DNA of 64,000 nt, taken from contig OZ242326.1 of the NCBI GenBank assembly GCA_965208325.1, forward strand, positions 3,040,001 through 3,104,000, given 5' to 3'. This document shows positions 100 to 52,300 of the stretch, piece by piece (the first letter of the stretch is position 1; the number at the start of each line of letters is the position of its first letter). The notes beneath the pieces are model-generated. The model was not told the DNA's origin, searched no databases, and worked only from the letters and a program-made list of their open reading frames with translations. The DNA is from Candidatus Poribacteria bacterium (GTDB lineage: Bacteria > Poribacteria > WGA-4E > PCPOR2b). Made by a program: the position numbers and the translations under genes.

Positions 100-2310
100 C
101 TACTTGACAACCACCATCCGCCTTAGCGCGGTGAGATCGCCCGCTCGGAGTTGATAGTAATAAGTGCCGCTTGTGACGGGTTCGCCGTTTTGGTTCCGGC
201 CGTCCCAATACGCAGCGCTCGCTTTATCGCGGTAGATTCCTGAAACTTGATGCCCAATGTCAAGGATGCGGACGATATGCCCGCTCTGGTCGTAGATGCT
301 TAAGGTTACGACCGAATCGTTTGCCAATTGATACGGTATCCAAGTTTCGGGGTTGAATGGATTCGGATAATTCTGCAGCAGCGCCGTGCGTTTGATGTTT
401 CCAAAGGTTGTGATGCGTCGTTCCGACGGTTCCACCGCTAATTGGATTGAAGACTCAACTTCCCACAGCAATACGGTGCCGTCGCGACTCCCGCTCGCGA
501 GTATCCGTCCATCAGGATTGTATACGATACTCCAGACATCATCCGTATGCCCGTTGAGCGTTCGCAGAAGTTCTCCCGTATCGGCGTCCCACAGACGGAC
601 GGTATCGTCTGAACTCCCACTGGCGATAGTCTTGCCATCGGGGCTGAACGCAACGCTATTGACGAAACCCGTTTGCTCGCCGAGCGTGAGTCGGTGTTTT
701 CCCGTATCGGCATCCCACAGACGGATGGTATTGTCCTCACTCCCGCTAGCAATCGTTTCGCCATCGGGACTGTATGCAACGCTCCTAACTATATCCGAAT
801 GTCCGTTGAGCGTTCTCAGGTGTTTCCCAGTATCGACGTTCCACAGCCGGACGCTATCGTCCAAACTCCCGCTGGCGATAGTCTTACCATCGGGGCTGAA
901 CGCAACGCTACCGACTGAATTAGCATCCTCATTAATTGTTCTTAGACTTTCTCCGGTATTTGGGTTCCACAGTCTTATTGTCCCATCCGTACTACCACTG
1001 GCAAAGGTGCGCCCATCGGGACCGAACACAACGCTAAAGACCCGTTCCGTATGCCCTTTTAACTTTCGCTTTTGTTTTCCGGTATCGAAGTCCCAAAGCC
1101 GTATGGAAGAGTCTGAATTTCCACTGGCAATTGTTCTGCTATTGGGACTGAACACAACGCTATCGACCGAGACAACACTCGGTACGGTGAGCCCTCGGTC
1201 TTGTTTTCCAGTATCGCTCCTCCACAAGCGGATGGTAGTGTCCAAACTGCCGCTTGCGACGTAACGTCCATTTGGACTGAACGCAACACAATTGACCGAC
1301 CGCGTATGCCCTATGAGTGTTGGCAGGCTTTCACCTGTGTGCGCGTCCCACAGACGGATTGTAGCGTCCCGGCTCCCACTTGCTATGGTCTTTCCGTCGG
1401 GACTGAAAGCAACGCTATAAACAAAATGCGTATGCCCTCTGAACGTACGCATATGTTTTCCAGTTTTGGTGTGCCAAAGACGGACGGTATCGTCCCTGCT
1501 TCCAGTTGCGATGGAACGGCCATCCGGACTGAACACAACGCTAGCGACTAAACCCGTGTGTCCTTTGAGAGTTCGGAGGTGTTCTCCTGTATCGGCCTCC
1601 CACAATCGGATAGTTGCGTCTCCGCTTCCGCTAACGATGGTCGTGCCATCCGGACTGAACGCAACGCTACGGACCAAATTCGTATGCCCATTGTGCCCCT
1701 TGAGTGTTCGGAGGTGTTCTCCGGTGTCGGCGTCCCACAGACGGACGCTTGCGTCCTCATATCCCCCGGCGATAGTTCCTCCATCGGGACTGAACGCTAC
1801 GGTATATACCTTAGACCTGAGTCCGCTAAACTTTCGCAGTTGTTCTCCTGTATCGGCCTCCCACAATCGAATAGTGACCCCACTCGCACTAGCGATAGTT
1901 CCTCCATCGGGACTAAACACCACGCTATCAATCGAATTTGTATGTCCCTTGAGCGTTTGCAGTCGATCTCCTGTATCGGCGTCCCACAGACGGACGCTTG
2001 CGTCCTCATATCCCCCGGCGATAGTTCCTCCATCGGGACTAAACGCTACGCTAACCACCGACGTATTCCCGGCGAATAGTGCGACCTCTCGATGGGACAC
2101 CGTATCGTAGAGCCAAATTCCGATACTGCTGGCAACTGCAAGGCGCGTACCATCCGGCGAATATTGTATTTTGCTTAAACTGCCTTTACCAAGGCGGAAT
2201 TTAGCCCCTTCGGGCAGCCCCCATTGCGGAAAATCTTGGGCATAGCTGTGCGGATATAACGCGTACACAAAAAGCAATATGTTAAACGCCAAAAACATGG
2301 CTTTCTTCAT
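100..2310 (-). CDS. Secreted WD40-repeat protein (14 repeats) with C-terminal FlgD-Ig / T9SS type A-like domain
   Basis: Signal peptide MKKAMFLAF...SYA; 14 (F/Y)xP(D/N)x repeats with GH...LWD; ends LLQNYPNPFNPETWIPYQL...YWDGRN..GEPVTSGTYYY..RRMVVVK. Start moved to ATG 2310 (AGAGG upstream). Confidence 0.9.
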   Translation of the reverse strand: MKKAMFLAFNILLFVYALYPHSYAQDFPQWGLPEGAKFRLGKGSLSKIQYSPDGTRLAVASSIGIWLYDTVSHREVALFAGNTSVVSVAFSPDGGTIAGGYEDASVRLWDADTGDRLQTLKGHTNSIDSVVFSPDGGTIASASGVTIRLWEADTGEQLRKFSGLRSKVYTVAFSPDGGTIAGGYEDASVRLWDADTGEHLRTLKGHNGHTNLVRSVAFSPDGTTIVSGSGDATIRLWEADTGEHLRTLKGHTGLVASVVFSPDGRSIATGSRDDTVRLWHTKTGKHMRTFRGHTHFVYSVAFSPDGKTIASGSRDATIRLWDAHTGESLPTLIGHTRSVNCVAFSPNGRYVASGSLDTTIRLWRSDTGKQDRGLTVPSVVSVDSVVFSPNSRTIASGNSDSSIRLWDFDTGKQKRKLKGHTERVFSVVFGPDGRTFASGSTDGTIRLWNPNTGESLRTINEDANSVGSVAFSPDGKTIASGSLDDSVRLWNVDTGKHLRTLNGHSDIVRSVAYSPDGETIASGSEDNTIRLWDADTGKHRLTLGEQTGFVNSVAFSPDGKTIASGSSDDTVRLWDADTGELLRTLNGHTDDVWSIVYNPDGRILASGSRDGTVLLWEVESSIQLAVEPSERRITTFGNIKRTALLQNYPNPFNPETWIPYQLANDSVVTLSIYDQSGHIVRILDIGHQVSGIYRDKASAAYWDGRNQNGEPVTSGTYYYQLRAGDLTALRRMVVVK

Positions 2311-4959: not shown

Positions 4960-6690
4960 TTGAAACGACCGAGGAAAATTTCCAGGCGGGCATTCCTGCA
5001 GCAGTCCTCCGGCGCGATTGCGATGGGATTCGCAGGATTAAATAGACTCTTTGCTGATTCCGAATCTGGACAGGGTTCAGGCGGTTTAATTGTAGAGCGG
5101 TACGGTAATCTGATTGCTGATCCCGACGGAATTCTTGACCTGCCGCCAGAATTTGCTTATCGGGTCTTCTCCAGGACAGGCGATATCATGGATGATGGCT
5201 TGTTGGTACCGGGCGACCACGACGGCATGGCCGCCTATCCGAGGCAAGACGGAAAGACGGTTCTTGTCCGCAACCACGAGTTAAGCGCTGACGAAATTGA
5301 AAAAAGCCCATACGGCACAGCGAACGAACTTGTCGGCCAGGTGCCGCTCGAAAAAATGTTCGACCCGGGCCTGCCGGATATTGGCGGTACCACAACCATG
5401 GTTTATGACACTCGAACCGGAACGCTCGAAAGCCATTTCTTGAGCCTTGCCGGTACGCTTCGGAATTGCGCTGGAGGACCGACGCCTTGGAATAGTTGGG
5501 TTACTTGCGAAGAATCCGTCCAGAGAGCGGTAGACGGCCATGAGCGAGATCACGGTTATAATTTTGACGTTCCCGCCGATGCAGCCGAATTAGTAGATCC
5601 GGTACCTCTGATAGATATGGGGCGGTTTTATCATGAGGCGATTGCTGTAGATCCAAAAAGCTGGATTGTCTACCAAACCGAAGACCGAAGTGATGGACTC
5701 ATCTATCGCTTCATTCCGAATCAACCCGGCAACCTCGCCGCGGGCGGCCGTCTTCAGGCGCTGGCAATTAGAGATATGCCAAGCGTGGACACTAGGAATT
5801 GGGTGCGCCGCGCCGTCCACGTCGGACAGACTTTAGAGGTCTCGTGGATTGATATTGTTAATGTCGAATCGCCGGAGGACGACCTGCGCCACCAAGGCTT
5901 CTCAAACGGTGCCGCGATGTTCGCGCGGGGTGAGGGTATGTGGTACGGCAACGGCGCAATTTACTTCGCGTGCACCAACGGCGGCGCCGCAAGGACCGGG
6001 CAGATTTGGCGGTACATTCCCAGCCGGTTTGAAGGCACAACAGGAGAGGATATCTACCCCGGCCAGCTTGACCTATTCATCGAGCCGAACAATAGCAATC
6101 TTTTGGAAAATGCCGACAATGTCACCGTCGCGCCGTGGGGTGATTTGATTCTGTGTGAAGATGGTGTCGGAGTACAGTTCCTAGTGGGTGTAACACCAGA
6201 AGGCAACCTCTATAAATTTGGAAAGAACTCTTTAAACGATTCGGAATTTGCGGGCGTTACGTTTTCGCCGGACGGTACAACCCTGTTCGTCAACATCCAA
6301 AATCCCGGCCTGACACTCGCCATCACGGGGCCTTTTCATTCAGCACGGGTTTTAGGTGAATCTGCGCGGAAACCCGCCGCAACCTTCGGTCAAATCAGGC
6401 GCGCCGAGCTGTTCCAAAACTACCCCAACCCCTTCAACCCTGATACATGGATTCCCTTTAAACTCGCCGAGGCTGCCGACGTAAGAATGGATATCTTTAG
6501 TTCGACCGGCAGCCTGGTGAGGCGGCTAAATCTGGGATACCTACCCGCCGGCGACTATCGCCATCGTTCTAAAGCAGCGTATTGGGACGGCCGAAACAGC
6601 TACGGAGAAAGAGCATCAAGCGGACTCTATTTCCTGCAGATGCACGCCGGTGATTATACATCCAGGCAGAAACTAGAGGTCCGGCAATAG
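4960..6690 (+). CDS. PhoX/DUF839-family alkaline phosphatase with Tat signal and C-terminal Ig-like (T9SS type A-like) domain
   Basis: SRRAFL twin-arginine motif; HDGMAA, RNHE, NCAGGPTPW.SWVTCEE, MGRFYHEA, ADN, CED and SEFAG motifs; C-terminal LFQNYPNPFNPDTWIP. Confidence 0.88.
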   Translation: MKRPRKISRRAFLQQSSGAIAMGFAGLNRLFADSESGQGSGGLIVERYGNLIADPDGILDLPPEFAYRVFSRTGDIMDDGLLVPGDHDGMAAYPRQDGKTVLVRNHELSADEIEKSPYGTANELVGQVPLEKMFDPGLPDIGGTTTMVYDTRTGTLESHFLSLAGTLRNCAGGPTPWNSWVTCEESVQRAVDGHERDHGYNFDVPADAAELVDPVPLIDMGRFYHEAIAVDPKSWIVYQTEDRSDGLIYRFIPNQPGNLAAGGRLQALAIRDMPSVDTRNWVRRAVHVGQTLEVSWIDIVNVESPEDDLRHQGFSNGAAMFARGEGMWYGNGAIYFACTNGGAARTGQIWRYIPSRFEGTTGEDIYPGQLDLFIEPNNSNLLENADNVTVAPWGDLILCEDGVGVQFLVGVTPEGNLYKFGKNSLNDSEFAGVTFSPDGTTLFVNIQNPGLTLAITGPFHSARVLGESARKPAATFGQIRRAELFQNYPNPFNPDTWIPFKLAEAADVRMDIFSSTGSLVRRLNLGYLPAGDYRHRSKAAYWDGRNSYGERASSGLYFLQMHAGDYTSRQKLEVRQ

Positions 6691-21155: not shown

Positions 21156-22142
21156 TTATTCGTCACGTCCAACCTGCTTCAGCCAACCCCATGTCAGTGC
21201 GTGCTTGCCGCCAGGCGACACGGAGAAAACCGTCACAAATTCAGGGTCGAACCACGCTGCGGCGCGGTTAAAGTTGCCTATCGTTGGAAGTTCTGTGCGA
21301 TTTCCTTTTCCATCAGCATCTTGAATGATAATCTTCGCTACGCCGCCCCCGAACGTAGTCGTTGCAAGTTCTTTGCCGTCCGGTGACCACTCAGGGTCTC
21401 TACAACACCCGATTTTTATCTGGTTTTTGCCATTTGCGCCCATTACAAAGATTTCAGCATGCCCGGAACGTTCCGTAATCCAGGCGATTTTTTCATTGTC
21501 CGGCGACCATGCAGGGTGCGAGTCCTTGGCGCGGTGATTGGTCAGATTTTGCAGATTTTCTCCGTTCGCGTCCATGAGGTGGAGGTCTCCAATCGTCTTA
21601 CCCCGTTTCGAAGAGAAGGCAATCTTTCGGGCGTCCCGCGACCACGCGGGTTGGATGTCGTCAGCGGGGTCGTTTGTAATATTCTCAATGATTTGCCCTG
21701 CCGCGTTCATGGTGTAGATTTCAAAGTTCCCGTCGCGGTTGGACGTGAAGGCTAGCTTCCCACCCCCAGGATGCCAGTTCGGCCAGCTGTCTTCTGCGGC
21801 ATCGTCGGTGAGCCGTTTCAACTTCATTCCATCCCCATTCACAACGTAGACATCAATGTTCTTCTTCGATTCAGTGTGGAATGCCAACCTTGTGCCATCC
21901 GGCGACCACTCCAATCCCAAGGGTTGCCCGTTAACCAACAGCAGTGCACGCTGATTGTTGCCGTCGGGGGTCATCAACCAGATATTGCCCTCGTCCGCGT
22001 TAGTAGAGACCGCGAGGGTTGGATTGTCCGGTGCTTTCGACTCGGCGCGTGACAGGAACATTGCACCCATTAGAAAAAGCACAACCAAACTAATTTTCAA
22101 GATTTCTGTTTTCTGATTTTGGATAGCCCTCACCCCCTGCAA
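21156..22142 (-). CDS. TolB-like PD40 beta-propeller, array copy 8
   Basis: Signal peptide, WSPDG repeats, C-terminal SVSPGGKHALTWGWLK. Confidence 0.9.
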   Translation of the reverse strand: MQGVRAIQNQKTEILKISLVVLFLMGAMFLSRAESKAPDNPTLAVSTNADEGNIWLMTPDGNNQRALLLVNGQPLGLEWSPDGTRLAFHTESKKNIDVYVVNGDGMKLKRLTDDAAEDSWPNWHPGGGKLAFTSNRDGNFEIYTMNAAGQIIENITNDPADDIQPAWSRDARKIAFSSKRGKTIGDLHLMDANGENLQNLTNHRAKDSHPAWSPDNEKIAWITERSGHAEIFVMGANGKNQIKIGCCRDPEWSPDGKELATTTFGGGVAKIIIQDADGKGNRTELPTIGNFNRAAAWFDPEFVTVFSVSPGGKHALTWGWLKQVGRDE

Positions 22143-22207
22143 TACGTTAGATAAGATAGTTCTCTCAAATCAAATCGGGCGGCAACTGAAAACTCTGGTA
22201 TAGTTTA

Positions 22208-23182
22208 TTATTCGTTACGCGCCGCCCTCTTCAGCCAGCCCCAAGTCAGCGCCTGCTTCTCGGCAGGCGACACTGAAAATACCGTCACAAAATCCGGGTC
22301 GAACCACGCGGGCGCACGGCTGACGTTGCTGACCCCCGGTAGTTCCAGCTGAGGCCCTTTTCCGTCCGCATCCCGGATGAAAATCCTTGAACCGCCCCCA
22401 AATGTCGCGCCGGCAATCTTTTCTCCGTCCGGAGACCACTCCGGATCGCGGCAACACGCGATGGGTACCTGATTTGCACCATCGGCAGCATCCATCGCAT
22501 AGATGTTGGCAGCACCCGTTCGGTTCGAGATAAACGCAATCTTCCGCTCATCGGGCGACCACGCGGCATGGGTATTCGCGGATCGGTTTTTCGTCAGATT
22601 TCGCATGTTCTCCCCGTTCGCGTCCATGACGTAAATGTCCCCAAGCGTCCTCCCCCGTTTGGAAGTAAACGCCATTCTTCGTCCGTCCGGCGACCACGCC
22701 GGATCGGTGTCCTTGACCGCGTCGTTCGTAACGTTCTTCAGTGCCTGACCCCCATCCGTCATCGTGTAGATTTCAAAGTTACCGTCCCGATTGGTCGTGA
22801 AGGCAATCGTTTTGCCGCTGGGATGCCAACTCGGTCGGCTGTCTTCCGCAGCATCTTCGGTGAGCCGTTTGAGGTTTTTCCCGTTGGCATTCACCACGTA
22901 GACATCAATATTCTTCCTCACCTCGGTATGGAACGCAAGCCTTCGCCCGTCTGGCGACCATTCCAGACCCAACGGCAGTGGATTAGCGTCAATCGCCAAC
23001 AGCGGGCGGACATCTTCCCCTTCCAAATTCATCAACCAGATAATCGCACCCTCGCCTACACTGGAAACCGCAAGCGTTGGCTTCTTAGGCGCTTGCGCAT
23101 GGACGTGCGTCAAAAGTACGCCATTGACAAAAAGAAACACGCCGACAAACACAACATAACGCCGCATTTTCTGAATTTGCAT
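22208..23182 (-). CDS. TolB-like PD40 beta-propeller, array copy 7
   Basis: Signal peptide, WSPDG repeats, SVSPAEKQALTWGWLK. Confidence 0.9.
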   Translation of the reverse strand: MQIQKMRRYVVFVGVFLFVNGVLLTHVHAQAPKKPTLAVSSVGEGAIIWLMNLEGEDVRPLLAIDANPLPLGLEWSPDGRRLAFHTEVRKNIDVYVVNANGKNLKRLTEDAAEDSRPSWHPSGKTIAFTTNRDGNFEIYTMTDGGQALKNVTNDAVKDTDPAWSPDGRRMAFTSKRGRTLGDIYVMDANGENMRNLTKNRSANTHAAWSPDERKIAFISNRTGAANIYAMDAADGANQVPIACCRDPEWSPDGEKIAGATFGGGSRIFIRDADGKGPQLELPGVSNVSRAPAWFDPDFVTVFSVSPAEKQALTWGWLKRAARNE

Positions 23183-23249
23183 AAATTGCTACCTCACTGT
23201 TTGATATCCGGAATCTGACTGATGGTTAAAACTCCAATACCAAAGCGTA

Positions 23250-24260
23250 TTAGTCATCGCCGCCAACCTGCTTAATCCAACCCCACGTTAATACTTGTTT
23301 GTCAACAAGTTCAACGGAGAATTCAACCACGAAATCAAGATCGAACCACGCTGGCGAGCGGTTCTGCAAGCCGATGTTTGGGAGATCATTCCAGTTCAGA
23401 TTGCCGGTCGCCGGGTGGATACGGATGTTCGCTTGGCCGCCGCCGAGCGCCGCCGCAGCAATGTGTTTCCCGTCCGGCGACCAACTCGCCTCCCTGTTGG
23501 GGAAACCGCCCGCCTTTGGGTCTTGAAGGTCGCTAATCTTCAAAATATTCCCGCCGTCCGCGGCATCCATTGTCCAAATCTCATCATTGCCGCTTCGACG
23601 AGACGTCCAAGCAATCATTTTGTTGTCCCACGACCATGTCGGTTGGATATCCTCGCCTCGAACATCAGTAAGGTTCTGCAGAATCTCCCCTTCACCATCC
23701 ATAAGGTAGATGTCTCCAAGGGATTTGCCTCGTTTCGACGCAAAGGCAATCTGCCGCCCGTTTCGCGACCATGCCGGATACTGGTCCTTGGCTGGATCGT
23801 TCGTCAGGTTACCCAAAATGTCACCCCGCATATTCATCGTGTAAATCTCATAATTCCCGTCACGATTAGTTTGGAATGCCATCCTTAGGCCGCTAGGATG
23901 CCAGGTGGGCCAACTGTCTTCCGCCTCGTGGTTGGTAAGTTTTTCGAGATTTTCGCCGTTGGCATCCACCACGTAGATATCAATGTTGTCTTCCAATTTG
24001 GTGAAGAACGCAATTTGGTTGCCATCCGGAGACCATTGCAAGCCCGAGGGTATCGGGTCTCCGTCAATTTCTAGAATCAGTCGCGGGTTCTTCCCATCGG
24101 GGCTGCGCATCCATATACCTACCCCTTCACCCGCATTAGTCGTGAGTGCGATAACTTCCCTCGCGGGCGCTTTTGCACCCGCCCCCACAACTAATACTGC
24201 GTTGCTCAATACCAACATCCCCAATAACCAGACGCACATCAACACTATTCGATTTTGCAC
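23250..24260 (-). CDS. TolB-like PD40 beta-propeller, array copy 6
   Basis: GTG start 24260 after GAGGTG; SVELVDKQVLTWGWIK tail. Confidence 0.88.
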   Translation of the reverse strand: MQNRIVLMCVWLLGMLVLSNAVLVVGAGAKAPAREVIALTTNAGEGVGIWMRSPDGKNPRLILEIDGDPIPSGLQWSPDGNQIAFFTKLEDNIDIYVVDANGENLEKLTNHEAEDSWPTWHPSGLRMAFQTNRDGNYEIYTMNMRGDILGNLTNDPAKDQYPAWSRNGRQIAFASKRGKSLGDIYLMDGEGEILQNLTDVRGEDIQPTWSWDNKMIAWTSRRSGNDEIWTMDAADGGNILKISDLQDPKAGGFPNREASWSPDGKHIAAAALGGGQANIRIHPATGNLNWNDLPNIGLQNRSPAWFDLDFVVEFSVELVDKQVLTWGWIKQVGGDD

Positions 24261-24337
24261 CGTAATCACCTCATTGATTAAAGGTTTATGCGTAACCGCG
24301 TTTAAGAGTGTGAGGTCTCGCATATCAATCTAGCAAG

Positions 24338-25339
24338 TCAATCATCTTGCACTATTTGCTTTACCCATCCCCACGTCATAGGACGTTTCTCGACTGGCGT
24401 AACGGAGAACTCAACTACGAATTTCGGATCGAACCACGCTGGGGAACGGTCTTGGGCGCCGATTGCCTGCAGGTCCATCCAATTCAGGTTGCCCTTTGCC
24501 GAATGCACGCGAATAGTCGCGCTGCCGCCCCCAAGTGCCGCCGAAGCGATGAGTTTGCCATCCGGCGACCAAGAGGGTTCCCGAACTCGAAAGCCTGCCG
24601 CTTTTGGATCCTGCAGATCGCTAATCTGCCTTGTATTCGCGCCGTCCGCGTCCATCGCCCAAATTTCTGCTGCGCCATTTCGAGCAGAGGTCCACGCAAT
24701 CTGCTTGCCGTCCCAAGACCACCTGGGTTGAAAATCTTCACCCCGAACGTTCGTGAGATTTTCCAAAATCTCGCCATTCTGGCTCATCAGGAATATATCG
24801 CCCAGCGTCTTCCCGCGTTTGGAGGCAAACGCTATCCGTCGAGCGTCCGGCGACCACGCCGGATAGTGGTCCTTGACAGCGTCGTTGGTCAGGTTGTCCA
24901 GAATATCCCCGCGTGATGTCATTGTGTAAATCTCAAGATTGCCGTCACGGTTGGTGTGGAAGGCTATCTTCTGCCCGCTGGGGTGCCATGTGGGCCAGCT
25001 GTCCTCTGATTCGTGTTCCGTGAGCTTACGAAGGTTTTCTCCGTCGCCGTTAACCACGTAAATATCAACGTTTTTATCTATCTCCGTGTGAAATGCTATC
25101 ATTGTTCCGTCCGGAGACCACACCAAACCCGACGGCATAGGATTGCCGTCAATCGGCAAAATGAGGCGGGCGCCACCGCCGTTATCATTCATCAGCCAAA
25201 TGCCTACGTCGCCATCACTTGCAACCGCAATGGTCGACCGATTCGGCGCTTGTGCTTCTACGTCCATCGCAAGCACCGTGCTGTACAAGAGCGGAAGACA
25301 GAAACAAATTACACGTGATAATGTTTTTTGTATTTCCAT
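24338..25339 (-). CDS. TolB-like PD40 beta-propeller, array copy 5
   Basis: AGGAGG RBS; SVTPVEKRPMTWGWVK tail. Confidence 0.9.
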   Translation of the reverse strand: MEIQKTLSRVICFCLPLLYSTVLAMDVEAQAPNRSTIAVASDGDVGIWLMNDNGGGARLILPIDGNPMPSGLVWSPDGTMIAFHTEIDKNVDIYVVNGDGENLRKLTEHESEDSWPTWHPSGQKIAFHTNRDGNLEIYTMTSRGDILDNLTNDAVKDHYPAWSPDARRIAFASKRGKTLGDIFLMSQNGEILENLTNVRGEDFQPRWSWDGKQIAWTSARNGAAEIWAMDADGANTRQISDLQDPKAAGFRVREPSWSPDGKLIASAALGGGSATIRVHSAKGNLNWMDLQAIGAQDRSPAWFDPKFVVEFSVTPVEKRPMTWGWVKQIVQDD

Positions 25340-25465
25340 AGCTTACAACCTCCTAACGAAAGCGTGCGTGTACGAAGGAATATGTGATGCCGCCCTATCT
25401 ACGCCGCTGCCCATAATTTCCAAATCGGTTTTCAACTGAAAATAAATATAGGTAGTTAGTATTCG

Positions 25466-26473
25466 TTATCGTCCTGCCAGCTTCAACCAGCCCCAGGTCA
25501 AAGGCTGTTTCTCCGCCGCGGAGACGGAAAATGCACCCACGAAGGCCGGATCAAACCAAGCCGGCGATCTATCTTCACCGCCCACCGCCGGTAAATCTTG
25601 CCACTCCAGATTGCCATCCGAAGGATGGATTCGGATGTTAATTACTCCTCCCTGCCCAAACGCCGTCGAGGCAATACGTCCGCCGTCAGGCGCCCACGTA
25701 ACATCCCTATTTCTCACTCCCGGTGCTCTGGGGTCCTGGAGGTCGCTTATCTTCATCGGATTCGCTCCATCCGCCTCCATTGACCAAATCTCCCCAGCAC
25801 CGTTACGGCGAGAGGTCCAAGCAATTCGATTCCCGTCCCGCGACCACTTGGGTTGAATATCTTCGCCGCGAACGTTGGTGAGATTTCGCACGTTCTCACC
25901 GCTAGCATCCATCACAAAGATGTCCCCAAGAGTCTTCCCCCGTTTGGAAGCAAAGGCTATCGTTCTACCATCTGGCGACCACGAGGGGTACTGGTCTTGC
26001 ACCGAGTCGTTCGTGATATTTTCCAATGCCTCTCCCGCCGATGTCATTGCATAGATTTCAAGGTTCCCATCGCGATTCGTGGAAAAGGCAAGCCTTTCCC
26101 CTTCCGGGTGCCAAGCCGCCCAGCTATCTTCTCCCGGATGGTCCGTCAGTCTGCTGAGATTTTCCCCGCCGGCATCCACAACGTAGACATCCATGTTCCC
26201 TTCTAATTCGGCATGGAACGCAATCTGTTTCCCGTTGAATGACCAAGTTAAGCCCGACGGCAGCGAGTCCTCTCCAACCTCTAAAACCAACCGAGGATTC
26301 TCTCCTTCGGGGGTCATAAACCAGATGCCTACCCCTTTCCTCACGTCCGTAGCAAACGCAATAGTCGGCTCGTCAGGCACCTCAGCCGGCGCGTTCCCGA
26401 TGAGTATCGCACTCAGTAGTAGTAACAGCCAGACCGAATATACCGCACATATCAAAAATTTCTGAATGCACAT
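25466..26473 (-). CDS. TolB-like PD40 beta-propeller, array copy 4
   Basis: Signal peptide; SVSAAEKQPLTWGWLK tail. Confidence 0.9.
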   Translation of the reverse strand: MCIQKFLICAVYSVWLLLLLSAILIGNAPAEVPDEPTIAFATDVRKGVGIWFMTPEGENPRLVLEVGEDSLPSGLTWSFNGKQIAFHAELEGNMDVYVVDAGGENLSRLTDHPGEDSWAAWHPEGERLAFSTNRDGNLEIYAMTSAGEALENITNDSVQDQYPSWSPDGRTIAFASKRGKTLGDIFVMDASGENVRNLTNVRGEDIQPKWSRDGNRIAWTSRRNGAGEIWSMEADGANPMKISDLQDPRAPGVRNRDVTWAPDGGRIASTAFGQGGVINIRIHPSDGNLEWQDLPAVGGEDRSPAWFDPAFVGAFSVSAAEKQPLTWGWLKLAGR

Positions 26474-26549
26474 CCTGTGGTCCCTTTTATGTTATTGAAA
26501 ATTCGAGGTGTGTGTCATCGCGTCATTCCGCCGCACACACAGTCCATTG

Positions 26550-27533
26550 TTAATTGTCCGATCGCACCTGTTTCACCCATCCCCAACTCAAGAGCCGCGC
26601 CTTGATAGGCGTCACGGAAAACTCCGGAATAAAACCAGGGTCGAACCAAGCTGGAGACCGATTCGGGAAACCGATGTCCGGTATCTCTTTCCAGTCGCCT
26701 TCTCCGTTGGGGTTGCTAGTAAAAACTACAGCTCTGCCGCCGCCAAAACCCACACCGGCGACCCTCCTGCCATCTGGTGACCACTCAGGGTCGCGCTTCA
26801 CTCCCGCATAACCGATTAGCTCAACTATGTTCCCGCCATCCGCAGCATCCATCACGAAGAGTTGACCGTTCCCCGGCCGAAAAGAGATCCATGCTATCTT
26901 CTCATTATCCGGAGACCACGCAGGTTGGCTGTCTTCCGCTTTATGATTGGTGAGATTGGTCAGGTTTTGACCATCGACGTCCATGGTGTAGACATCTCCC
27001 AGCGTCCGCCCGCGCTTCGAGCTAAACGCAAGCTTACGGCCGTCCCGCGTCCACGCCGGATGGAGATCGTTGGCAGGGTCATCTACAAGTTTCTTCTGGA
27101 TAACTCCATTCGGCGTCATCGTGTAGATGTCAAAGTTTCCGTCACGGTTTGTTGAAAATGCAATACGTTGACCGCTAGGATGCCAGTCGGGCCACGCGTC
27201 CTCCGCCTCGTGGTCGGTGAGTCTTTTGAGGTTAGCCCCGTCGCCGTCGACAATGTAGATATCAGTGTTCAACTTCAGATGTGTATGAAAAACCAGTTTT
27301 TCGCCGTCCGGGGACCAGTTCAAACTCAAGGGAACTGGATCGCCGCCAACTTCAAGGATAGGGCGTTGATTTTCCCCATCAGTATCCATCACCCAAATAT
27401 TCCCGCCCGCTGCATCGCTAGAGACCGCAATGGTCGGGTTTTTGGGCGCCTGTGCCTCAACACTCACGATGCACCCTATTCCAATCAAAATGAACATACC
27501 GATGTACAGGACATATAGCTTCCGTAATTGCAT
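26550..27533 (-). CDS. TolB-like PD40 beta-propeller, array copy 3
   Basis: Start ATG 27533 after AAGGGGG; SVTPIKARLLSWGWVK tail. Confidence 0.88.
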   Translation of the reverse strand: MQLRKLYVLYIGMFILIGIGCIVSVEAQAPKNPTIAVSSDAAGGNIWVMDTDGENQRPILEVGGDPVPLSLNWSPDGEKLVFHTHLKLNTDIYIVDGDGANLKRLTDHEAEDAWPDWHPSGQRIAFSTNRDGNFDIYTMTPNGVIQKKLVDDPANDLHPAWTRDGRKLAFSSKRGRTLGDVYTMDVDGQNLTNLTNHKAEDSQPAWSPDNEKIAWISFRPGNGQLFVMDAADGGNIVELIGYAGVKRDPEWSPDGRRVAGVGFGGGRAVVFTSNPNGEGDWKEIPDIGFPNRSPAWFDPGFIPEFSVTPIKARLLSWGWVKQVRSDN

Positions 27534-27655
27534 AGCCGATAACCCCCTTCCGGTACGATTACGGATTATTCTTCGCATCGTTAATCGAATCGCTCCGTTT
27601 GTAGAAAGGTTTCACATACTTACCGTCACACTTTGCTTCAAAATATGCGCCGAAT

Positions 27656-28501
27656 TTATGCAAGCCCCGTCAGTTTTTCGCTTAGCTCCCAAAGCCCCTT
27701 CTGTAGTTGCGTATCTTTAAATTTGGGCGGTATCGCTTTGAGCTTCTTTTTGTCAAAATATCCGCCGGTAACCCCTTGAACCTCATCGGAACTCGCCAAA
27801 TAGATACTGGTCTGCGCGGCCTCTTCCGGGGAATGGGTAAACCTTTTCATGATTTTACTCATCAAGGGTTGGTACCACTTCTGCGGATGCACATTCCAAA
27901 TTCCAGTAGAGGCCTGGCCCGGATGCAATGCGTTTGCCGTGACGCGTGTATCTTTCAAACGCTCCGCAATTTCCATGGTGAACAGAACAACAGCCAGTTT
28001 GGAAGTCGCATACGCCTTGAAACTCTTATACTTCCTTTGGAAATGTGGATCGTCAAAGTCAATTTTGCCCTGAACATACGCATTGGACGCAACGTTCACA
28101 ATGCGCGCTTCGGGTGCTTGTTTGAGCATTGGCAGTAGCAAATTCGTAAGGAGAAATGGCCCCAGATAGTTAACTCCCATGGTCGCTTCAAATCCATCCG
28201 GCGTCTCTTCCCTTTCAGGGCGAAAGATGCCCGCATTATTTATTAACACGTGCAAATGGCTATATCTCTGCGATAATTCATCGGCGAACTCACGAATTGA
28301 AGCGAGCGATGCCAAATCAACCTGCATCATCTCAACCTTCGTGTTCCCGCTTTCCAGTTTAATCGATTCGTACACAGGTCTAGCATCGTTTAGATCAATG
28401 CATGCCATGACAATGGTCGCACCTTTTTTAGCGAGAGCTTTGGTAATTTCTCTCCCAATGCCGCCGTCAGCGCCGGTAATCAGTACCGTTTTTCCATCCA
28501 C
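27656..28501 (-). CDS. SDR oxidoreductase (retinol dehydrogenase-like)
   Basis: TGADGGIG, NNAG, YATSK, ANALHPG. Confidence 0.92.
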   Translation of the reverse strand: MDGKTVLITGADGGIGREITKALAKKGATIVMACIDLNDARPVYESIKLESGNTKVEMMQVDLASLASIREFADELSQRYSHLHVLINNAGIFRPEREETPDGFEATMGVNYLGPFLLTNLLLPMLKQAPEARIVNVASNAYVQGKIDFDDPHFQRKYKSFKAYATSKLAVVLFTMEIAERLKDTRVTANALHPGQASTGIWNVHPQKWYQPLMSKIMKRFTHSPEEAAQTSIYLASSDEVQGVTGGYFDKKKLKAIPPKFKDTQLQKGLWELSEKLTGLA

Positions 28502-28591
28502 GGTTAGTGTGCTTTCTGAAATGAGTTAATTGAACATCTCCTGCGCAATGCTGTCGATCAACGCGCCCATCGTTTATCATACGGCAAATTG

Positions 28592-29602
28592 TCAATTGCC
28601 ATGAACTGCCCGTTTTAGCCAGCTCCAAGTTAAAATGCGCTTAGCCGCAGGGGAAACGGCGAATGCACCGATAAAATCGGGGTCGAACCAAGCAGGTGAC
28701 CGAGTTCGTGCACCAATCTGCAAGCGCCCTTGTTCTGCTTCATCAGCCCCGGCGATAGCCAAGATAATGAAACTATCCCCGCCCCCAGCCGTCACGTAAG
28801 CAACCATCTCCCCATCGGGAGACCAAGTGGGCTCAAGTTCCTCCCAATGGTCACGAGGCGCGGCAAAGGCATTGAGTTTCGCAGCGTTCGCACCGTCTGC
28901 GTCCATTAGAAAAATATCACCCGTTCCATCGCGATGGGATGTCCAGAGGATTTGCGAGCCATCCGGCGACCACTTGGGTTGTGAATCTAGAGCGCGATGA
29001 TTGGTGAGATTACGCAAGTCTTCACCATTGGCATCCATCACGAAAAGATCGCCGAGGGTTTTCCCTCGCTTAGAAGAGAAGACAATGCTCCGGCCATCCG
29101 GCGACCAGGCCGGGTCGATGTCGATGACAGGGTCATTTGTTAGGTTTTCGATGCCTTCACCCTCCGCCGTCATCACGTAGATATCAAAATTGCCGTCTCG
29201 GTCAGACGTGAAGATAATTCGCTGGTTGCCGGGGTGCCATTGAGGCCAACTGTCTTCTGCAGGCGCTTCGGTGAGCTGTTTGAGATTACGCCCATCGGCG
29301 TTCATTACATAGATGTCAACATTTCCATTTACTTCGGTGTGAAACGCCAGTTTTCGGCCATCCGGCGACCACGCCAATCCTAGCGGCAACGGGTTTCCGA
29401 CTATGTCTAGAATGGCACGTTGGTCCGCTCCATCGGGGTCAATCAACCAAATCGTGCCTCCCTCGCGCGGGTCAGCGGTAACCGCGATTGTCGGTTTATC
29501 AGGCGCTTGCTGTGCTAGCGCAATCGCCGGCAGGATGACATTCACCAAGAAAACCAGACCGGCACATACTATCCGCACGGCCGAATTTCGGACGTCTTGC
29601 AT
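28592..29602 (-). CDS. TolB-like PD40 beta-propeller, array copy 2
   Basis: Probable start MQDVRNS (29602); AVSPAAKRILTWSWLK tail. Confidence 0.87.
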   Translation of the reverse strand: MQDVRNSAVRIVCAGLVFLVNVILPAIALAQQAPDKPTIAVTADPREGGTIWLIDPDGADQRAILDIVGNPLPLGLAWSPDGRKLAFHTEVNGNVDIYVMNADGRNLKQLTEAPAEDSWPQWHPGNQRIIFTSDRDGNFDIYVMTAEGEGIENLTNDPVIDIDPAWSPDGRSIVFSSKRGKTLGDLFVMDANGEDLRNLTNHRALDSQPKWSPDGSQILWTSHRDGTGDIFLMDADGANAAKLNAFAAPRDHWEELEPTWSPDGEMVAYVTAGGGDSFIILAIAGADEAEQGRLQIGARTRSPAWFDPDFIGAFAVSPAAKRILTWSWLKRAVHGN

Positions 29603-29715
29603 CTGTGCATTCCCTATCTCGCCCGCGCTAGCCCAACACCAAAAAGCCCCATCTTCCCGCCGCACGCCGCGGGGAAGTTTCCGCAGTGCCCCATAAACGC
29701 TAGCACCAGCGGTCA

Positions 29716-30720
29716 TCAATTGCCTCGTCTTAACTGCTTAAGCCACCCCCACGCCAACGGGCGTTTCTCAACCGGTGAAACGGAAAACGCTCGGACAAAA
29801 TCAGGGTCAAACCACGCTGGAGAGCCGTGGATTACCCCGATGTCCGGCAACATCGGGTGTGCGACTAGCTCATCATCTTTGTCTACTTCCGCGATAAAGA
29901 TGGGACTGCGGCTGATGTAGACTACCTTTTTACTGTCAGGCGACCACGAAACCTCGCGGTCATCCCATTGTCCAATAGCGTCTTTCCGAACCCCGGAAAT
30001 CTGCCTGAGATTCTCGCCCTGGGGATCCATCACGAAGATATCGCCGTTGCCATTCCTTTGCGAGGACCACACAATCCACTTGCCGTCCGGCGACCACTTC
30101 GGTTGAATTTCCTTCCCGCGAGTGTTCGTCAGATTCCGCGGCTCATCTCCATTCGCTTCCATCACCCAGATGTCGCCAAGCGATTTACCCCGCTTGGTAG
30201 CAAAGGCTATCTGCCGGCCGTCCGGCGACCAGGTGGGTTGAGTGTCCGGGGCGGGGTCGTTTGTGAGGTTTTCCAAAACCTTACCCACTAGATTCATCAC
30301 CTGGATTTCAAGGTTCCCATCCCTGTCCGACGCGAACGCAAGCCTACGGCCGCTAGGGTGCCACGTCGGCCAACTATCTTCCCCTTCGTGGTCAGTTAGT
30401 CTTTTGAGTTTTTCTCCGTCGGCGTTCATCACGTAGACATCCACGTTCTTTCCCACTTGGGTGTGGAACGCAAGCTGACTGCCGTCCGGCGACCACTCCA
30501 TCCCCCAAGACAGCGGCGCGCCTTCTATTTTCAAAATTGAGCGCGGGTCTCCGCCATCGGGGTCTATATACCATATTGCATTATTGCCTCCTGAATCGCT
30601 CGAGACTGCGATGGTCGGTTTTTCAGGTGCCTGCGCTTCGGTACCTGCCGCGAGCACGGCGTGAATCAACAACAGTATGCTGAAGTACACAGTCGGCATT
30701 GACACTTCTCGGGACAGCAT
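29716..30720 (-). CDS. TolB-like PD40 beta-propeller, array copy 1
   Basis: Start ATG 30720 after GAGGTG; SVSPVEKRPLAWGWLK tail. Confidence 0.88.
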   Translation of the reverse strand: MLSREVSMPTVYFSILLLIHAVLAAGTEAQAPEKPTIAVSSDSGGNNAIWYIDPDGGDPRSILKIEGAPLSWGMEWSPDGSQLAFHTQVGKNVDVYVMNADGEKLKRLTDHEGEDSWPTWHPSGRRLAFASDRDGNLEIQVMNLVGKVLENLTNDPAPDTQPTWSPDGRQIAFATKRGKSLGDIWVMEANGDEPRNLTNTRGKEIQPKWSPDGKWIVWSSQRNGNGDIFVMDPQGENLRQISGVRKDAIGQWDDREVSWSPDSKKVVYISRSPIFIAEVDKDDELVAHPMLPDIGVIHGSPAWFDPDFVRAFSVSPVEKRPLAWGWLKQLRRGN

Positions 30721-30880
30721 TTTTATCACCTCATTACAGATTTTCAATACGCGGTTTTTGCCTTCCTAGCCTTTGACCTTACCGGTTGTGGACATTCGGC
30801 CTCTTCAGTTCAATTTTTCAGCACAAATCTTGTCAGGTTTGGCGCTGCGCCCGTCTGCTCAAGACTCAAGCCGAACTTCC

Positions 30881-49389: not shown

Positions 49390-52300
49390 TCACTGAAATT
49401 CGCCGCGCACCGTCACGGAACTCGCAATTGATAAGAAATCCCGCCCCTCCTCGACATGGTCGTTGTTATAGCTGAGGCCGAGGTTCAAATTCGCAGTCAG
49501 GCGGGTGCTTAGGTTGTACCGCGTTCGTAACGTCGTCTCGTATCGTTCCGATCTCTCCTCCCGATTCTTGCCATAGTTCTCCCGGCGGATAACCGTAGAC
49601 AACGTATTCGTGAGATCCAAATCGTGCTTGAGAGGGATTCGCCCGAGAATCGGTATTGGAAGACCTCCCTCTAAACGCAGCTTGTAATCAATGCTGAGAT
49701 TCGGCGTGATTATCAACGCCGAACTGTCAATTCCGCCGCCGCGTACCTGGTCTCGCATTGTCATGCGCACACCGAGCGCGCCCCTCGTTGAAGCACCCAG
49801 CGACTGGCTCCAACTGACGGACGGTTCTTGTGAGACACTCTCGTTAATAGTTGTATTGATGTTACTCTGATCCCGCTGCGTATGCCGGTATCTTAGCTGA
49901 AAGCTGGAGTTGGCATTAAACAGCTTGAGATTTCCTTCGTAGCTTACGGTTAGGTTGTCAGACGAAGTGCTTAGCGATTTCGTAAAACCCTTGCTCCGGG
50001 AGACGTTTGTGCCGAGCGACACCCATGACCATGGATCGACCGAAGTGCGAAATCCATACCGGTTTCGCTGCCGAGATTGGCTGCGCTCCGGTGTGTCGGC
50101 TGGTAGTTCCAGAATATCTCGAATTGAGGTTCCCGGTGCCAGTCGCTGAAGGGAGTCTTGCGTATCAAAACTAACATCAGCGTTTAACGCAAGACTCTCC
50201 ATGCTTCGACGAAGTAGACCGAATTGGCCATCACCCTGTTTGCCCTGCCTCTCCTTCAGCTTGCGCTCTAGTTCAGCTTTGTCTCGGGAAATCCAATCTC
50301 CCCTTTGGCTCTCTGCCTCTTCGAGCATGTCCATATCAACGTCCATACGCTCCAGCCGATCCAGCTCGCGTTGCCGTTTCTCTTCGAGTTGTATTTCTTC
50401 TTCAAAGCTGTCGAGTGTCTCTTGGCTTTTGTCCTTCAAATCTATCGCCTTCTCTGTTTGTTTAGAACCATGGAAGTCTATCGCACTCCCTATTCGTTCG
50501 CTTGATCCCTCCCTATTCGGTCTGTCGATCCCGTCCCCAATCGTATCAGTATTCGGCTCTCGGAACAGCCATCCAAACCATACTCTTGGGCGCATGCTAA
50601 GCCCAAAGCGTATATTCGCGTTGATTCGGGCGTTCTTCTGGTCGCGAAACCAGTCTTCACGGAAACTGATGCGGTTGCTGATTGTTGGACGAACGCCAAA
50701 AAAATCGCGGTTCAAACGCGGGTTCAAAGACAGCCGATGTTCACGGCCGCCGATGGTAAACTCCGATTTGGTTTCGGTTGACTCAGGTTCATCCGTAACG
50801 GTTAGGTCGGTTGTTACCGGCGTTGTTTGGAACGGTGTTCCAAAACTAGCCGAACCGAATCCACTTGAGCGATTCAGATTATCGTCGCGCCTTTCGAGCG
50901 TACGGCTAACCTCGTATGTCGGATTCAGGCTAAAACTTGCAACCGGACTGATATTGATTGAAATCGAACCGCTGTCAACTTTCTCGTCTCGGTTACGCCC
51001 ATAACCATAACCAAAAGATGAAAAACTGCTGCCGCCAGACTCTGTTGCCGTTAATGGATCGACCTCAACATCTTCGTGTCGGTACTGCACATCAAGCCCA
51101 AAGATTTGGCCAAGTCCGTATCGGAATGTGGATGTGTAGAGATTGCTAACCTCAGTCCCCTGGCGTTCGTTCCAGAAATTCTGTCGATTGTATGCAAAAC
51201 CTAAGGCAGGCACGAATCGGTGCGGACTAAAGCGCGCAGACAGATCACGGTTATGCGTTCTGCTTTTCCCGCTTTGAAAGGTGCTAAATGATCCGCGGCG
51301 GCTCTCCGTCTCAGATTCCTGTTCGCGGATGGAGTAGGTAATTGGCAGCCAGCGGAAAAGATGAAGATCGGCATCAACATTGTAATCGTTGCTGGTGGTG
51401 CTAAACCCTAGATCCTGCCGGCGTTGACGCCCTGTTTGTCCGGATGAACTTTCAAAATCCTTGTCCTGTCTTGCAAATCCGCCGCGGACACTGAGAAAAG
51501 GGCCAAGTTCTATAGACATGTTGGCGCGCCGCGCCCAGCCCGACCGTACAAGCGGATCACTCAAGTGGATTTCGTTTACCCAAACTTCCCCGCCAACCTC
51601 ATATTCCGTGTCGTTGCGAATGCCGACCAAAATTCCGCCAATGCTCTTAATTGAGAGTTGCGTACTGTTTGTACCACGGACGGCAAACCCATCCGGATGG
51701 CCGTCGGTTTCGTTTGTATCGACCGGCTCATTCATCTCCCCCTCAATGGTGTCAAGTGATTCTTCCTCCTGTGCCGCAGGTAGGTTTAAATCTGGGTACT
51801 CATTCCGTTTCACATCCTCCAGATCGATTTCTATCAGCTCCCATCCCTCAAAATCAATCACGCGCGTATATTCATAAAAGTCGTTAAGATTCTCAAAGAT
51901 ATTCACCCCTTCCTCCGGTTCCCGACTCGGTTCATCAAAGGACCCCGATGAATAAAAGGACGATCGGTAATTGGTGCGAATGCTCGGCGCCAGCCGCATC
52001 ACAAACGTGGAGTAACTCTTGTCGCCGTAAATCCACAGCTTGAGTTTATCATGTTTTGAGAAATCTTGGCCCTCGCCCTGCCGAAGACCCCGCAACTTTT
52101 GCGAAGTAACCCCGAAAGAACCCGGTAGTAAATTGTAGGTTAAAGTCAGCGTTTGTTCGCGCTGTTCCTGTTGGAATCCAAAAACACTGCTCGAAACAAA
52201 CGGATGGAGTTTCTTAAATGCCTTGTTGTCTTTAATCTGGTCGTAGGCATCTTGATAATCATCAAAGTTATAGTTGTCTTTCGTGGCAACAGTAAACACT

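Follow-up and report, generated by a model that had tools for sequence, protein, structure and literature searches.

Poribacteria are an uncultured phylum and important sponge symbionts. A 64,000-nucleotide stretch of one Candidatus Poribacteria genome (contig OZ242326.1, positions 3,040,001 to 3,104,000; hereafter the window) carries an array of eight exported proteins that end in closely similar short tails, and a degenerate form of this tail stands ahead of an Ig-like C-terminal domain (CTD) in two other proteins. What does such a peptide do at the end of a protein, and what might read it? C-terminal sorting signals define the building of bacterial surfaces, and those that are well described are, to our knowledge, all either folded domains (the CTDs of T9SS) or a motif combined with a membrane helix; the tag analysed here is neither. 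We argue that it is most likely a sorting or attachment signal not previously described. That it is a functional tag recognised in trans, for sorting, processing or docking, we consider highly probable, while the fuller statement, in which the portable and disordered tag is a stand-alone T9SS linker motif whose likeliest reader is a C25 sortase, appears plausible but a little short of an even chance.

The array and its tails are placed in the window as follows.

21156..30747, minus strand: eight PD40 beta-propeller genes in tandem, encoding exported proteins (the cargo), from ORFs and PD40 matches
21156-22142, minus strand: ORF of PD40 paralog 1; tag and stop 21156..21227 (minus), ending FSVSPGGKHALTWGWLKQVGRDE
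22208-23182, minus strand: ORF of PD40 paralog 2; tag and stop 22208..22279 (minus), ending FSVSPAEKQALTWGWLKRAARNE
23250-24323, minus strand: ORF of PD40 paralog 3; tag and stop 23250..23321 (minus), ending FSVELVDKQVLTWGWIKQVGGDD
24338-25339, minus strand: ORF of PD40 paralog 4; tag and stop 24338..24409 (minus), ending FSVTPVEKRPMTWGWVKQIVQDD
25466-26473, minus strand: ORF of PD40 paralog 5; tag and stop 25466..25531 (minus), ending FSVSAAEKQPLTWGWLKLAGR
26550-27578, minus strand: ORF of PD40 paralog 6; tag and stop 26550..26621 (minus), ending FSVTPIKARLLSWGWVKQVRSDN
28592-29719, minus strand: ORF of PD40 paralog 7; tag and stop 28592..28663 (minus), ending FAVSPAAKRILTWSWLKRAVHGN
29716-30747, minus strand: ORF of PD40 paralog 8; tag and stop 29716..29787 (minus), ending FSVSPVEKRPLAWGWLKQLRRGN

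All eight paralogs match the PD40 domain (E 1e-27 to 4e-42), and an SDR oxidoreductase gene (27656-28501) interrupts the array. The initial annotation had described eight TolB-like proteins ending in a common motif 4-6 residues from the stop; the tails agree with this, sharing the consensus F(S/A)V(S/T)Pxx-K-xxx-(T/S/A)W(G/S)W(L/I/V)K with 4-6 residues after the conserved Lys in 8/8. The proteins themselves are, judged by their domain matches, PD40 propeller proteins and not TolB: the Tol-Pal TolB model TIGR02800 gave 163-190 bits (cutoff 343) in the three of eight paralogs scanned, and its matches covered only propeller positions ~163-386 of 418.

An HMM built from 66 tails placed the tag 1-11 residues before the stop in ~115 ORFs of this genome, which has ~3,700 genes. 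The core consensus, (A/S)V-x-P-x2-K-x3-(T/S)-W-G-x-(I/L/V)-K followed by 1-11 unconstrained residues, has 17 conserved positions. Among the 66 seed tails the Trp is invariant (66/66), and five further positions (numbered with the Thr/Ser as 0) are 83-97% conserved: G+2 in 62/66, K+5 in 64/66, V-9 in 64/66, K-4 in 60/66 and P-7 in 55/66. The conserved Lys is never the last residue (0/115 tagged ORFs). The tail pattern exceeds chance: a search of every six-frame ORF of ≥60 aa in the genome (17,879 in all) finds the core [TSA]W[GS].[ILVM][KR] 85 times, 69 of these within 15 residues of the stop, against near-stop shares of 4/26, 9/32, 5/34 and 9/27 for four scrambled-core controls. A register-exact pattern gave 57 genome matches, of which 46 are C-terminal, 11 lie exactly 96 residues before the stop ahead of a T9SS-like CTD, and none is found elsewhere, in keeping with the earlier proposal that the motif sits either at the C-terminus or at the junction of cargo and CTD. 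No Pfam or NCBIfam model matched the tag (0/21 tails at E ≤10), and literature searches found no published description of it.

The tag is portable. Its carriers belong to five or more unrelated Pfam folds, with PD40, Laminin_G_3, 3keto-disac_hyd, DUF3108-like and Cohesin proteins among them, or have no Pfam match, and most of the tagged cargo consists of small binding modules. The initial annotation was right to call the motif common to unrelated folds, and of the two observations that it named as counting against its proposal, confinement to the propeller family and commonness in cytoplasmic proteins, neither was made: the motif extends outside the propeller fold, and signal-peptide-like N-termini are present in 112/115 tagged ORFs, compared with 1010/2342 background ORFs of ≥250 aa (export signals being called by eye and by a hydrophobic-window heuristic). 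A tail HMM and genome scan, of the kind that the initial annotation proposed, yielded both C-terminal bias and signal-peptide enrichment. By the same calls the tag is tied to exported proteins generally, and the N-terminus of the PhoX protein, with SRRAFLQ, reads as a twin-arginine signal.

The tag is also spread across the phylum. The string K-L-x-T-T-W-G-x-I-K is present in 163/176 Poribacteria genomes (reversed-pattern controls, 0), and one family without the exact pattern (f8) has a terminal TWGx(L/I/V/M)K nonetheless; the tag is present in every Poribacteria family examined. All 80 matches fetched from species genomes have a stop within 1-12 codons, and 71/80 of the records are titled Poribacteria.

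A second form of the motif lies at the junction of cargo and CTD, for which the window offers two examples.

391..435, minus strand: junction motif VEPSERRITTFGNIK, with F for W, in the flexible linker that joins the final WD40 blade to the CTD (sequence and AF2)
103..390, minus strand: CTD of the WD40 protein, T9SS-like type A / FlgD-Ig, RTALLQNYPNPFNPETW...VVVK (domain match and AF2)
6355..6399, plus strand: degenerate junction motif GESARKPAATFGQIR before the CTD of a PhoX phosphatase (sequence)
6400..6687, plus strand: CTD of PhoX, FlgD-Ig / Por_Secre_tail-like (domain match)

The two degenerate copies are therefore where they had been reported, ahead of an Ig-like CTD. Both directly precede (R)TALLQNYPNPFNPETW / RAELFQNYPNPFNPDTW and then a CTD of FlgD_ig/Por_Secre_tail type. 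In the junction form, 8 residues separate I+4 from the Y of YPNP. The WD40 copy is in exact register (V-9, P-7, a basic residue at -4, T-1, T0, G+2, I+4, K+5), while the PhoX copy retains only K-4, T0, F+1, G+2, I+4 and R+5. The two forms differ at +1, which is W in terminal copies and L or F in junction copies; W directly ahead of a CTD occurs in 0/176 Poribacteria genomes, L/F ahead of a CTD in 26/176 (8/31 genera). The equivalence of tail and junction forms rests on the gap-free register match, because the tail HMM did not recover the junction copies at E ≤10. The junction motif is carried by ~16/45 CTD proteins of this genome, mainly WD40 propellers, and in family f4 the exact pattern occurs in 0/112; as only some CTD families have the motif, CTD processing does not generally depend on it. 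No cargo family was seen in this genome to switch between tag-only and tag-plus-CTD at the level of orthologs.

Both forms are disordered in structural models. In PD40 paralog 2 the tail (residues 303-324) has an AF2 pLDDT below 50, against 90-97 for the propeller, and in the WD40 protein a single segment, residues 37-54, drops below 50; it contains the junction motif V40-K54 and joins the blade to a CTD predicted as a beta-sandwich (pLDDT 85-93). These models bear on the explanation that the tail is a structural strand closing the cargo fold, or a functionless relic left behind when CTDs were lost. The array copies on PD40 and the junction copies mainly on WD40 would allow a common propeller-linked origin, but the explanation is very improbable in view of the variety of tagged folds and of the position in which AF2 leaves the tail, outside the fold. 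Among 120 homologs listed, the tail is present in 54 and absent in 66 (a CTD in 0), and many of the untagged ones stop directly after the last blade with the propeller complete, so that the tail, on the models, is not a propeller strand. Moreover, the invariant Trp and the five strongly conserved positions persist despite only 22-37% identity among the paralogs over their last 40 residues, and the tag is kept across the phylum, where a relic would decay.

A tail disordered on its own could instead fold on binding, for instance by beta-strand addition, to a common envelope receptor or scaffold, and so serve as a docking peptide without any cleavage. Both faces of the predicted strand carry conserved residues (K-4, T0, G+2 and I+4 on one, L-3, T-1, W+1 and K+5 on the other), as for a buried bound strand, and the prevalence of small binding modules among the cargo would suit such a role. 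Many small lectin-like and propeller modules would in this way be gathered at a single site in the manner of cohesin and dockerin, or be carried with CTD partners through the wide T9SS-like pore; one tagged cohesin protein does resemble the cohesin at the N-terminus of two giant CTD-bearing proteins (33-35% identity). TPR proteins, classic peptide binders, lie within three genes of tagged genes in 6/21 and 9/31 cases, against a background rate of 0.086, but these neighbour enrichments are modest and common to several expanded families in the same islands. Docking accounts neither for the same motif exactly at the cargo-CTD linker nor for the residue or residues that always follow the conserved Lys, and we judge it rather unlikely.

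The core parts of T9SS are the Sov/SprA translocon, the PorV shuttle, the PorU sortase and the GldK/L/M/N (PorK/L/M/N) motor and ring; in characterised systems PorU works at the cell surface, once the cargo has crossed the translocon by means of its CTD. The window contains a candidate translocon, already named in the initial annotation and given here for context only.

49390..55956, minus strand: SprA/Sov-like protein of 2188 aa (TIGR04189 160.6 bits, cutoff 200)

Its SprA_N match (22.8 bits) is below cutoff, and the best of the PorV-like barrels in the genome scores 104 bits against a cutoff of 250; GldM, GldL and GldN gave no match in this genome, but none in the control genomes either. The tail alone might be read by this SprA-like/PorV-like machinery, as the initial annotation had suggested for the SprA-like machine, and so be a minimal export signal that moves the protein across the outer membrane. 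The genes are at hand, and the CTD signature is found in 176/176 Poribacteria genomes with no tag in any genome that lacks it, although this co-occurrence is uninformative because every Poribacteria lineage has both features. A precedent comes from P. gingivalis HBP35, for which PMC10202324 describes the last 22 CTD residues as enough for GFP secretion and the conserved lysines of motif E as needed for secretion. In alignment, however, the tag corresponds to the linker that precedes the CTD, not to the last strands of the CTD (motifs D/E: ...SGTYYYQLRAGDYTALRRMVVVK), and the shortest CTDs documented in PMC11969387, at 43-55 aa, still keep motifs B, D and E, to which PorV is modelled to bind. 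Export by the tail alone thus seems quite improbable.

In characterised T9SS, as set out in PMC11969387, the linker ahead of the CTD is acted on by the PorU sortase, not by SprA. In P. intermedia the cleavage-site motif, PT/GI with a small residue at +1, sits in a flexible linker, 6-11 aa ahead of Motif B in short CTDs and 19-30 aa ahead of it in long ones (PMC11969387). The position of the junction motif matches such a site and suggests a PorU-like reader. Two C25 proteins of ~2100 aa are encoded in this genome, each with a full-length Peptidase_C25 match (E 3e-81 and 2e-80), a Propeptide_C25 and a FlgD_ig CTD of its own. C25 matches at E ≤1e-30 occur in 46/46 sampled Poribacteria genomes, with two or three copies in 45/46, and the His and Cys of AGHGG...LSCYNG, presumably the C25 catalytic dyad, are invariant in 30/30 orthologs. 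With PorU-model scores of 282 and 257 bits, below the curated cutoff of 420, the two giants could also be gingipain-like proteases and not sortases. No dedicated processing enzyme was found beside the tagged gene clusters in the neighbourhoods of this genome.

We tentatively favour a mechanism, its C25-sortase part taken alone having a probability clearly below even, in which the tag on the C-termini of Sec/Tat-exported binding-type proteins is the stand-alone form of the cargo-CTD linker motif and a common envelope factor, most likely a PorU-type C25 cysteine peptidase acting as sortase, recognises it in trans. The peptidase would cut inside the motif or just after it, the near-invariant Gly at motif position +2 resembling the small +1 residue of known PorU sites, and would then either release the cargo or join its new C-terminus to a surface glycan by an amide link. 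W versus L/F before this Gly may mark two substrate classes, possibly for two conserved C25 paralogs. Against this C25-sortase reading, the tag-only proteins are without Motifs B, D and E, which leaves their route to a surface sortase unexplained. The strongest version is unlikely; in it, the 17-residue tag alone suffices for exported proteins to be processed and attached to the cell surface by a PorU-like C25 transpeptidase or by the T9SS-like pathway as a whole, with W versus L/F routing them to different C25 paralogs.

If this version is true, the tag would represent a new signal class of a diderm bacterium, with neither a domain nor a membrane anchor, a "T9SS cleavage site without a CTD" on ~3% of the proteome and across a whole phylum. 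The link to the T9SS linker and cleavage site makes for a concrete and testable idea of the reader, and with it C25 sortase-type processing would reach beyond Bacteroidota. Surface lectin-like proteins of Poribacteria probably mediate host contact, and a profile of the tag would improve the annotation of exported proteins in Poribacteria genomes.

Among known systems, the signals of LPXTG/sortase, PEP-CTERM/exosortase, GlyGly-CTERM/rhombosortase and MYXO-CTERM are similar in that a short near-C-terminal motif is shared by many unrelated exported proteins of one lineage. In all four, the motif is followed by a transmembrane helix and a basic cluster; a tripartite signal of this type was rejected here, as only 1-11 mostly polar residues follow the tag motif. 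Within the final 40 aa of the 115 tagged ORFs, the most hydrophobic stretch of 15 residues has 5-10 hydrophobic residues in 114 ORFs and 12 in the other one. The outer-membrane beta-signal has an aromatic residue at the very C-terminus, and this too was rejected: the last residue is F in 5/115 and R, N, E, K, D, Q or H in 96/115 (counted over the eight commonest last residues). The T9SS type A CTD (TIGR04183 / PF18962), dozens of which occur in the same genomes as the tag, likewise occupies the extreme C-terminus of Sec/Tat-exported proteins of many folds, but it is a folded Ig-like beta-sandwich with 3-7 strands and 43-100 aa (lower size limit of about 43 aa from PMC11969387) in which motifs B, D and E are present, whereas the tag is a disordered peptide of ~20 residues, without these motifs and with no TIGR04183/PF18962 match. 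Closest is the PorU cleavage-site linker as portrayed in PMC11969387, from which the Poribacteria motif differs in its greater length (17 positions, of which six are 83-100% conserved), in standing alone at the C-terminus without a CTD in ~115 proteins of one genome, in having W in the terminal tag and L/F at the junction, in belonging to a phylum other than Bacteroidota and in a cleavage that is putative. Only the junction form occupies the linker position 6-30 aa upstream of Motif B. The PorU site and the Poribacteria motif are nonetheless alike as short conserved sequences of a flexible linker, close ahead of Motif B (8 residues here, compared with 6-11 for short CTDs), in which a small residue (Gly) is soon followed by an Ile, and they occur on exported proteins of genomes that encode C25 PorU-like peptidases.

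We show that exported proteins of Candidatus Poribacteria carry a real, strongly conserved, disordered and portable tag, (A/S)V-x-P-x2-K-x3-(T/S)-W-G-x-(I/L/V)-K followed by 1-11 residues, which is found only at their very end (terminal form) or in the linker between cargo and a T9SS-like C-terminal domain (CTD; junction form). The array at 21156-30747 (-) of the window consists of eight ORFs of 324-375 aa, each with a match to the PD40 beta-propeller repeat at E 1e-27 to 4e-42. The initial annotation called their products TolB-like; they are propeller proteins of the PD40 type rather than TolB, because the three that were scanned against the NCBIfam TolB model (TIGR02800) scored 163-190 bits, far below the cutoff of 343, and over propeller positions only. 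Its description of a shared ending held for all eight, which close with F(S/A)V(S/T/E)(P/L/A)xx(K/A)xxx(T/S/A)W(G/S)W(L/I/V)K, then 4-6 residues and the stop. The degenerate copies reported in a WD40 protein and a PhoX phosphatase were confirmed as well, each directly followed by a FlgD_ig/Por_Secre_tail-type CTD starting (R)TALLQNYPNPFNPETW:

391-435, minus strand: junction copy VEPSERRITTFGNIK in the 806-aa WD40 protein
6355-6399, plus strand: junction copy GESARKPAATFGQIR in the PhoX phosphatase

An SDR oxidoreductase gene without a signal peptide (27656-28501, -) splits the array, and array genes 7 and 8 overlap by 4 bases (29716-29719). The PhoX phosphatase (4960-6690, +) combines an apparent twin-arginine signal (SRRAFLQ) with its T9SS-like CTD; if the twin-arginine reading holds, a Tat-exported, pre-folded protein would pass to the CTD pathway.

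The genome, a single contig of 4.71 Mb, was scanned over all 17,879 six-frame ORFs of at least 60 aa. The core [TSA]W[GS].[ILVM][KR] occurred 85 times, 69 of them no more than 15 residues from the stop; for four scrambled core patterns the near-stop fractions were 4/26, 9/32, 5/34 and 9/27. Three ORFs without the upstream part of the motif were left out of the seed set, and the consensus of the remaining 66 tails, numbered from the residue preceding the tryptophan as position 0, comprises V-9 (64/66), P-7 (55/66), K-4 (60/66), W+1 (66/66), G+2 (62/66) and K+5 (64/66), with T/S/A at 0 and I/L/V/M at +4. About 50 further terminal copies (TTWAxIK, xIWGxIK and similar) were added by the tail HMM. 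Defined by an HMM score of at least 9 bits, a match ending within 16 aa of the stop and an ORF of at least 150 aa, tagged ORFs number 115, or ~3% of a greedy 3,734-gene set. A signal-peptide-like hydrophobic N-terminus, judged by a heuristic and not by SignalP, is present in 112 of these 115 vs 1010 of 2342 background ORFs. Once their tails had been removed, the 69 first-pass ORFs formed two large families of 30 and 27 members, unrelated to each other, with 12 singletons left over, and 13 representatives were assigned by Pfam to Laminin_G_3 (3), PD40 (2), 3keto-disac_hyd (2), DUF3108-like (1), Cohesin (1) or no family (4). The portability over unrelated folds, C-terminal position bias and export bias proposed for a sorting tag are all borne out at this scale; the proposed function and the link to SprA stay candidates. 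Downstream of the motif the 115 tagged ORFs hold only 1-11 mostly polar residues, nothing hydrophobic, and none of them ends at the conserved Lys itself. Tripartite signals are ruled out by this lack of a hydrophobic stretch, and an OMP beta-signal by the anatomy of the same 115 ends.

The initial annotation had also raised the alternative that the motif is a structural strand of the propeller family. In an AlphaFold2 model of propeller paralog 2, built from 60 aligned homologs (mean pLDDT 88.6), the propeller, as far as the strand SRAPAWF (288-294), scores 90-97, and the motif (residues 303-319 and 321-324) lies below 50. Among the best 120 homologs listed, the tail is present in 54, with tailed ones down to ~33% identity, and absent from 66, many of which stop just past the last blade and none of which has a CTD. 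A propeller strand is ruled out by this low pLDDT and by homologs whose propeller is complete without the tail. A second AlphaFold2 model, covering the C-terminal 150 residues of the WD40 protein (22 sequences), gives the CTD as a confident sandwich (pLDDT 85-93, about residues 70-150) and places the junction motif (V40-K54) inside the sole segment below 50 (residues 37-54), predicted to be a flexible linker between the last WD40 blade and the CTD. The tag is an add-on rather than part of the cargo fold, and we regard a structural element or a relic as highly improbable.

The tail HMM recovered no junction copies at E <= 10, and the equivalence of the terminal and junction forms was therefore tested with a register-exact pattern. 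Over all ORFs, V.P.{6}[TS][LFWMIV]G.[ILVM][KR] gave 57 matches: 46 terminal, 11 junction and none elsewhere. The two forms are one motif in a shared register. The residue at +1 is W in 45 terminal matches and V in one; the 11 junction matches, one of them preceding a CTD that reads NYPNAF, sit in front of the CTD, each precisely 96 aa from the stop, and carry L (10) or F (1). The CTD signature N[YF]PNPFN is found in 45 ORFs of this genome, about 16 of which have the junction motif (mostly WD40 proteins, plus PhoX and one 943-aa protein), and the remaining CTD families have junctions of a different kind. W directly before a CTD was found in 0 of 176 Poribacteria genomes vs L/F in 26 of 176 (8 of 31 genera; by exact pattern, 0 of 112 genomes of f4, the largest family), and from these counts it follows that across the phylum W marks stand-alone copies and L/F marks junction copies. 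The idea of one cargo family switching between the two endings was rejected, as only domain-level similarity was found.

The tag is phylum-wide. K-L-x-T-T-W-G-x-I-K occurs in 163 of the 176 genomes (reversed-pattern controls, 0), and the terminal W tag in all 112 genomes of family f4 (G064-G175). The exact pattern is found in 0 of the 8 genomes of another family, f8; terminal variants rule this out as a tag-free lineage, T-W-G-x-(L/I/V/M)-K matching 40 v 0, 63 v 2, 13 v 0 and 4 v 0 times against control, in terminal position in 11 of 11 looked at. No tag-free lineage for contrast was found among the 176 genomes, and because the CTD signature is universal in the phylum (176/176), co-occurrence of tag and CTD is uninformative. 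Over one genome per prokaryotic species, the back-translated pattern gave at least 128 stretches. Among the matches listed, 80 loci comprise by title 71 Poribacteria, 7 "uncultured bacterium", 1 Pseudomonadota and 1 Deltaproteobacteria, and in all 80 a stop follows within 1-12 codons. The two loci with titles from other phyla (L039, Pseudomonadota; L068, Deltaproteobacteria) hold the terminal tag in full, V.P/V..KL.TTWG.IK and 3 further residues, which could reflect mis-binning or a wider distribution.

This Poribacteria genome holds a T9SS-like set made up of an SprA-like giant, two C25 giants, PorV-like barrels (at least four) and 45-46 CTD proteins, among them:

window 49390-55956, minus strand: SprA/Sov-like protein, 2188 aa (TIGR04189, 160.6 bits, cutoff 200)
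genome 4021620-4027898, plus strand: C25 giant (Peptidase_C25)
genome 3715227-3721577, minus strand: C25 giant (Peptidase_C25)

Both PorU-like C25 giants (about 2100 aa) combine full-length Peptidase_C25 with a C25 propeptide and a FlgD_ig CTD of their own. At E <= 1e-30, every one of the 46 Poribacteria genomes sampled has C25, and 45 of them have two or three copies; a third paralog (about 1750 aa), absent from this genome, occurs in family f4. In all 30 of 30 orthologs, the His and the Cys of AGHGG...LSCYNG are conserved without exception. The best PorV-like barrel scores 104 bits vs a cutoff of 250, and searches for GldM, GldL and GldN gave no match in this genome or in the control genomes. 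SprA-like and PorV-like proteins, scoring below these cutoffs, would be the readers if the tag were a self-sufficient minimal export signal, a reading we consider improbable. The SprA-like gene is adjoined by an ECF sigma factor of 557 aa that has a long extension at its C-terminus (56245-57918, +) and a neighbouring 426-aa leucine-rich-repeat protein (57958-59238, +) with sub-threshold matches to LRR-type effector families.

Three genes on each side of all 52 tagged clusters were surveyed, neighbour families being named from sequence features and not Pfam. Against a background rate of 0.086, the paralogs lying within three genes of tags were 16/31 for PhyH-like dioxygenases, 6/21 and 9/31 for TPR proteins, 7/24 for a 640-aa polytopic membrane family, 5/15 for CRTAC1-like and 4/12 for FGE-like proteins. 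A dedicated sorting enzyme beside the tagged genes was rejected, the recurrent neighbours being co-expanded families in shared islands with no single-copy candidate. Tagged genes and expanded families share islands throughout the genome, in the window at 33715-34557 (-), 19767-20795 (-) and 31553-33553 (-); such islands may be capture-and-uptake or catabolic cassettes.

We infer that the motif is very probably recognised by a partner in trans. Sortase-type processing or attachment is tentatively favoured, because in characterised systems no factor other than the PorU sortase is known to work on the linker, and the genome has conserved C25 enzymes of the PorU-like kind; such an enzyme would act on the tag to process or attach exported cargo. 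Counting against sortase-type processing, tag-only proteins have no CTD to bring them to an enzyme on the cell surface. A docking peptide that is not cleaved is a rival reading, which we hold to be somewhat unlikely.

Pfam and NCBIfam models gave no match to 21 tails even at E <= 10. In a literature search with most subscription journals outside its reach, no description of the motif strings was found, Poribacteria with type IX secretion returned only papers unrelated by title and abstract, and Poribacteria with C-terminal sorting signals returned nothing. In a 2023 review (PMC10202324), CTD proteins are said to be confined to Bacteroidota, and the final 22 residues of the HBP35 CTD to be enough for GFP secretion. 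According to PMC11969387, T9SS CTDs can shrink to 43-55 aa and still retain motifs B, D and E, the parts modelled as binding PorV; PorU cleaves in the flexible cargo-CTD linker, at a conserved PT/GI motif with a usually small +1 residue, which precedes Motif B by 6-11 aa for short CTDs and by 19-30 aa for long ones; and the new C-terminus is then amide-linked to glycan. The Poribacteria motif does not resemble the last strands of T9SS CTDs; the likeness lies in position, since in the junction proteins 8 residues separate G-x-I-K from YPNP, which puts the junction motif where T9SS cargo has its cleavage-site motif.
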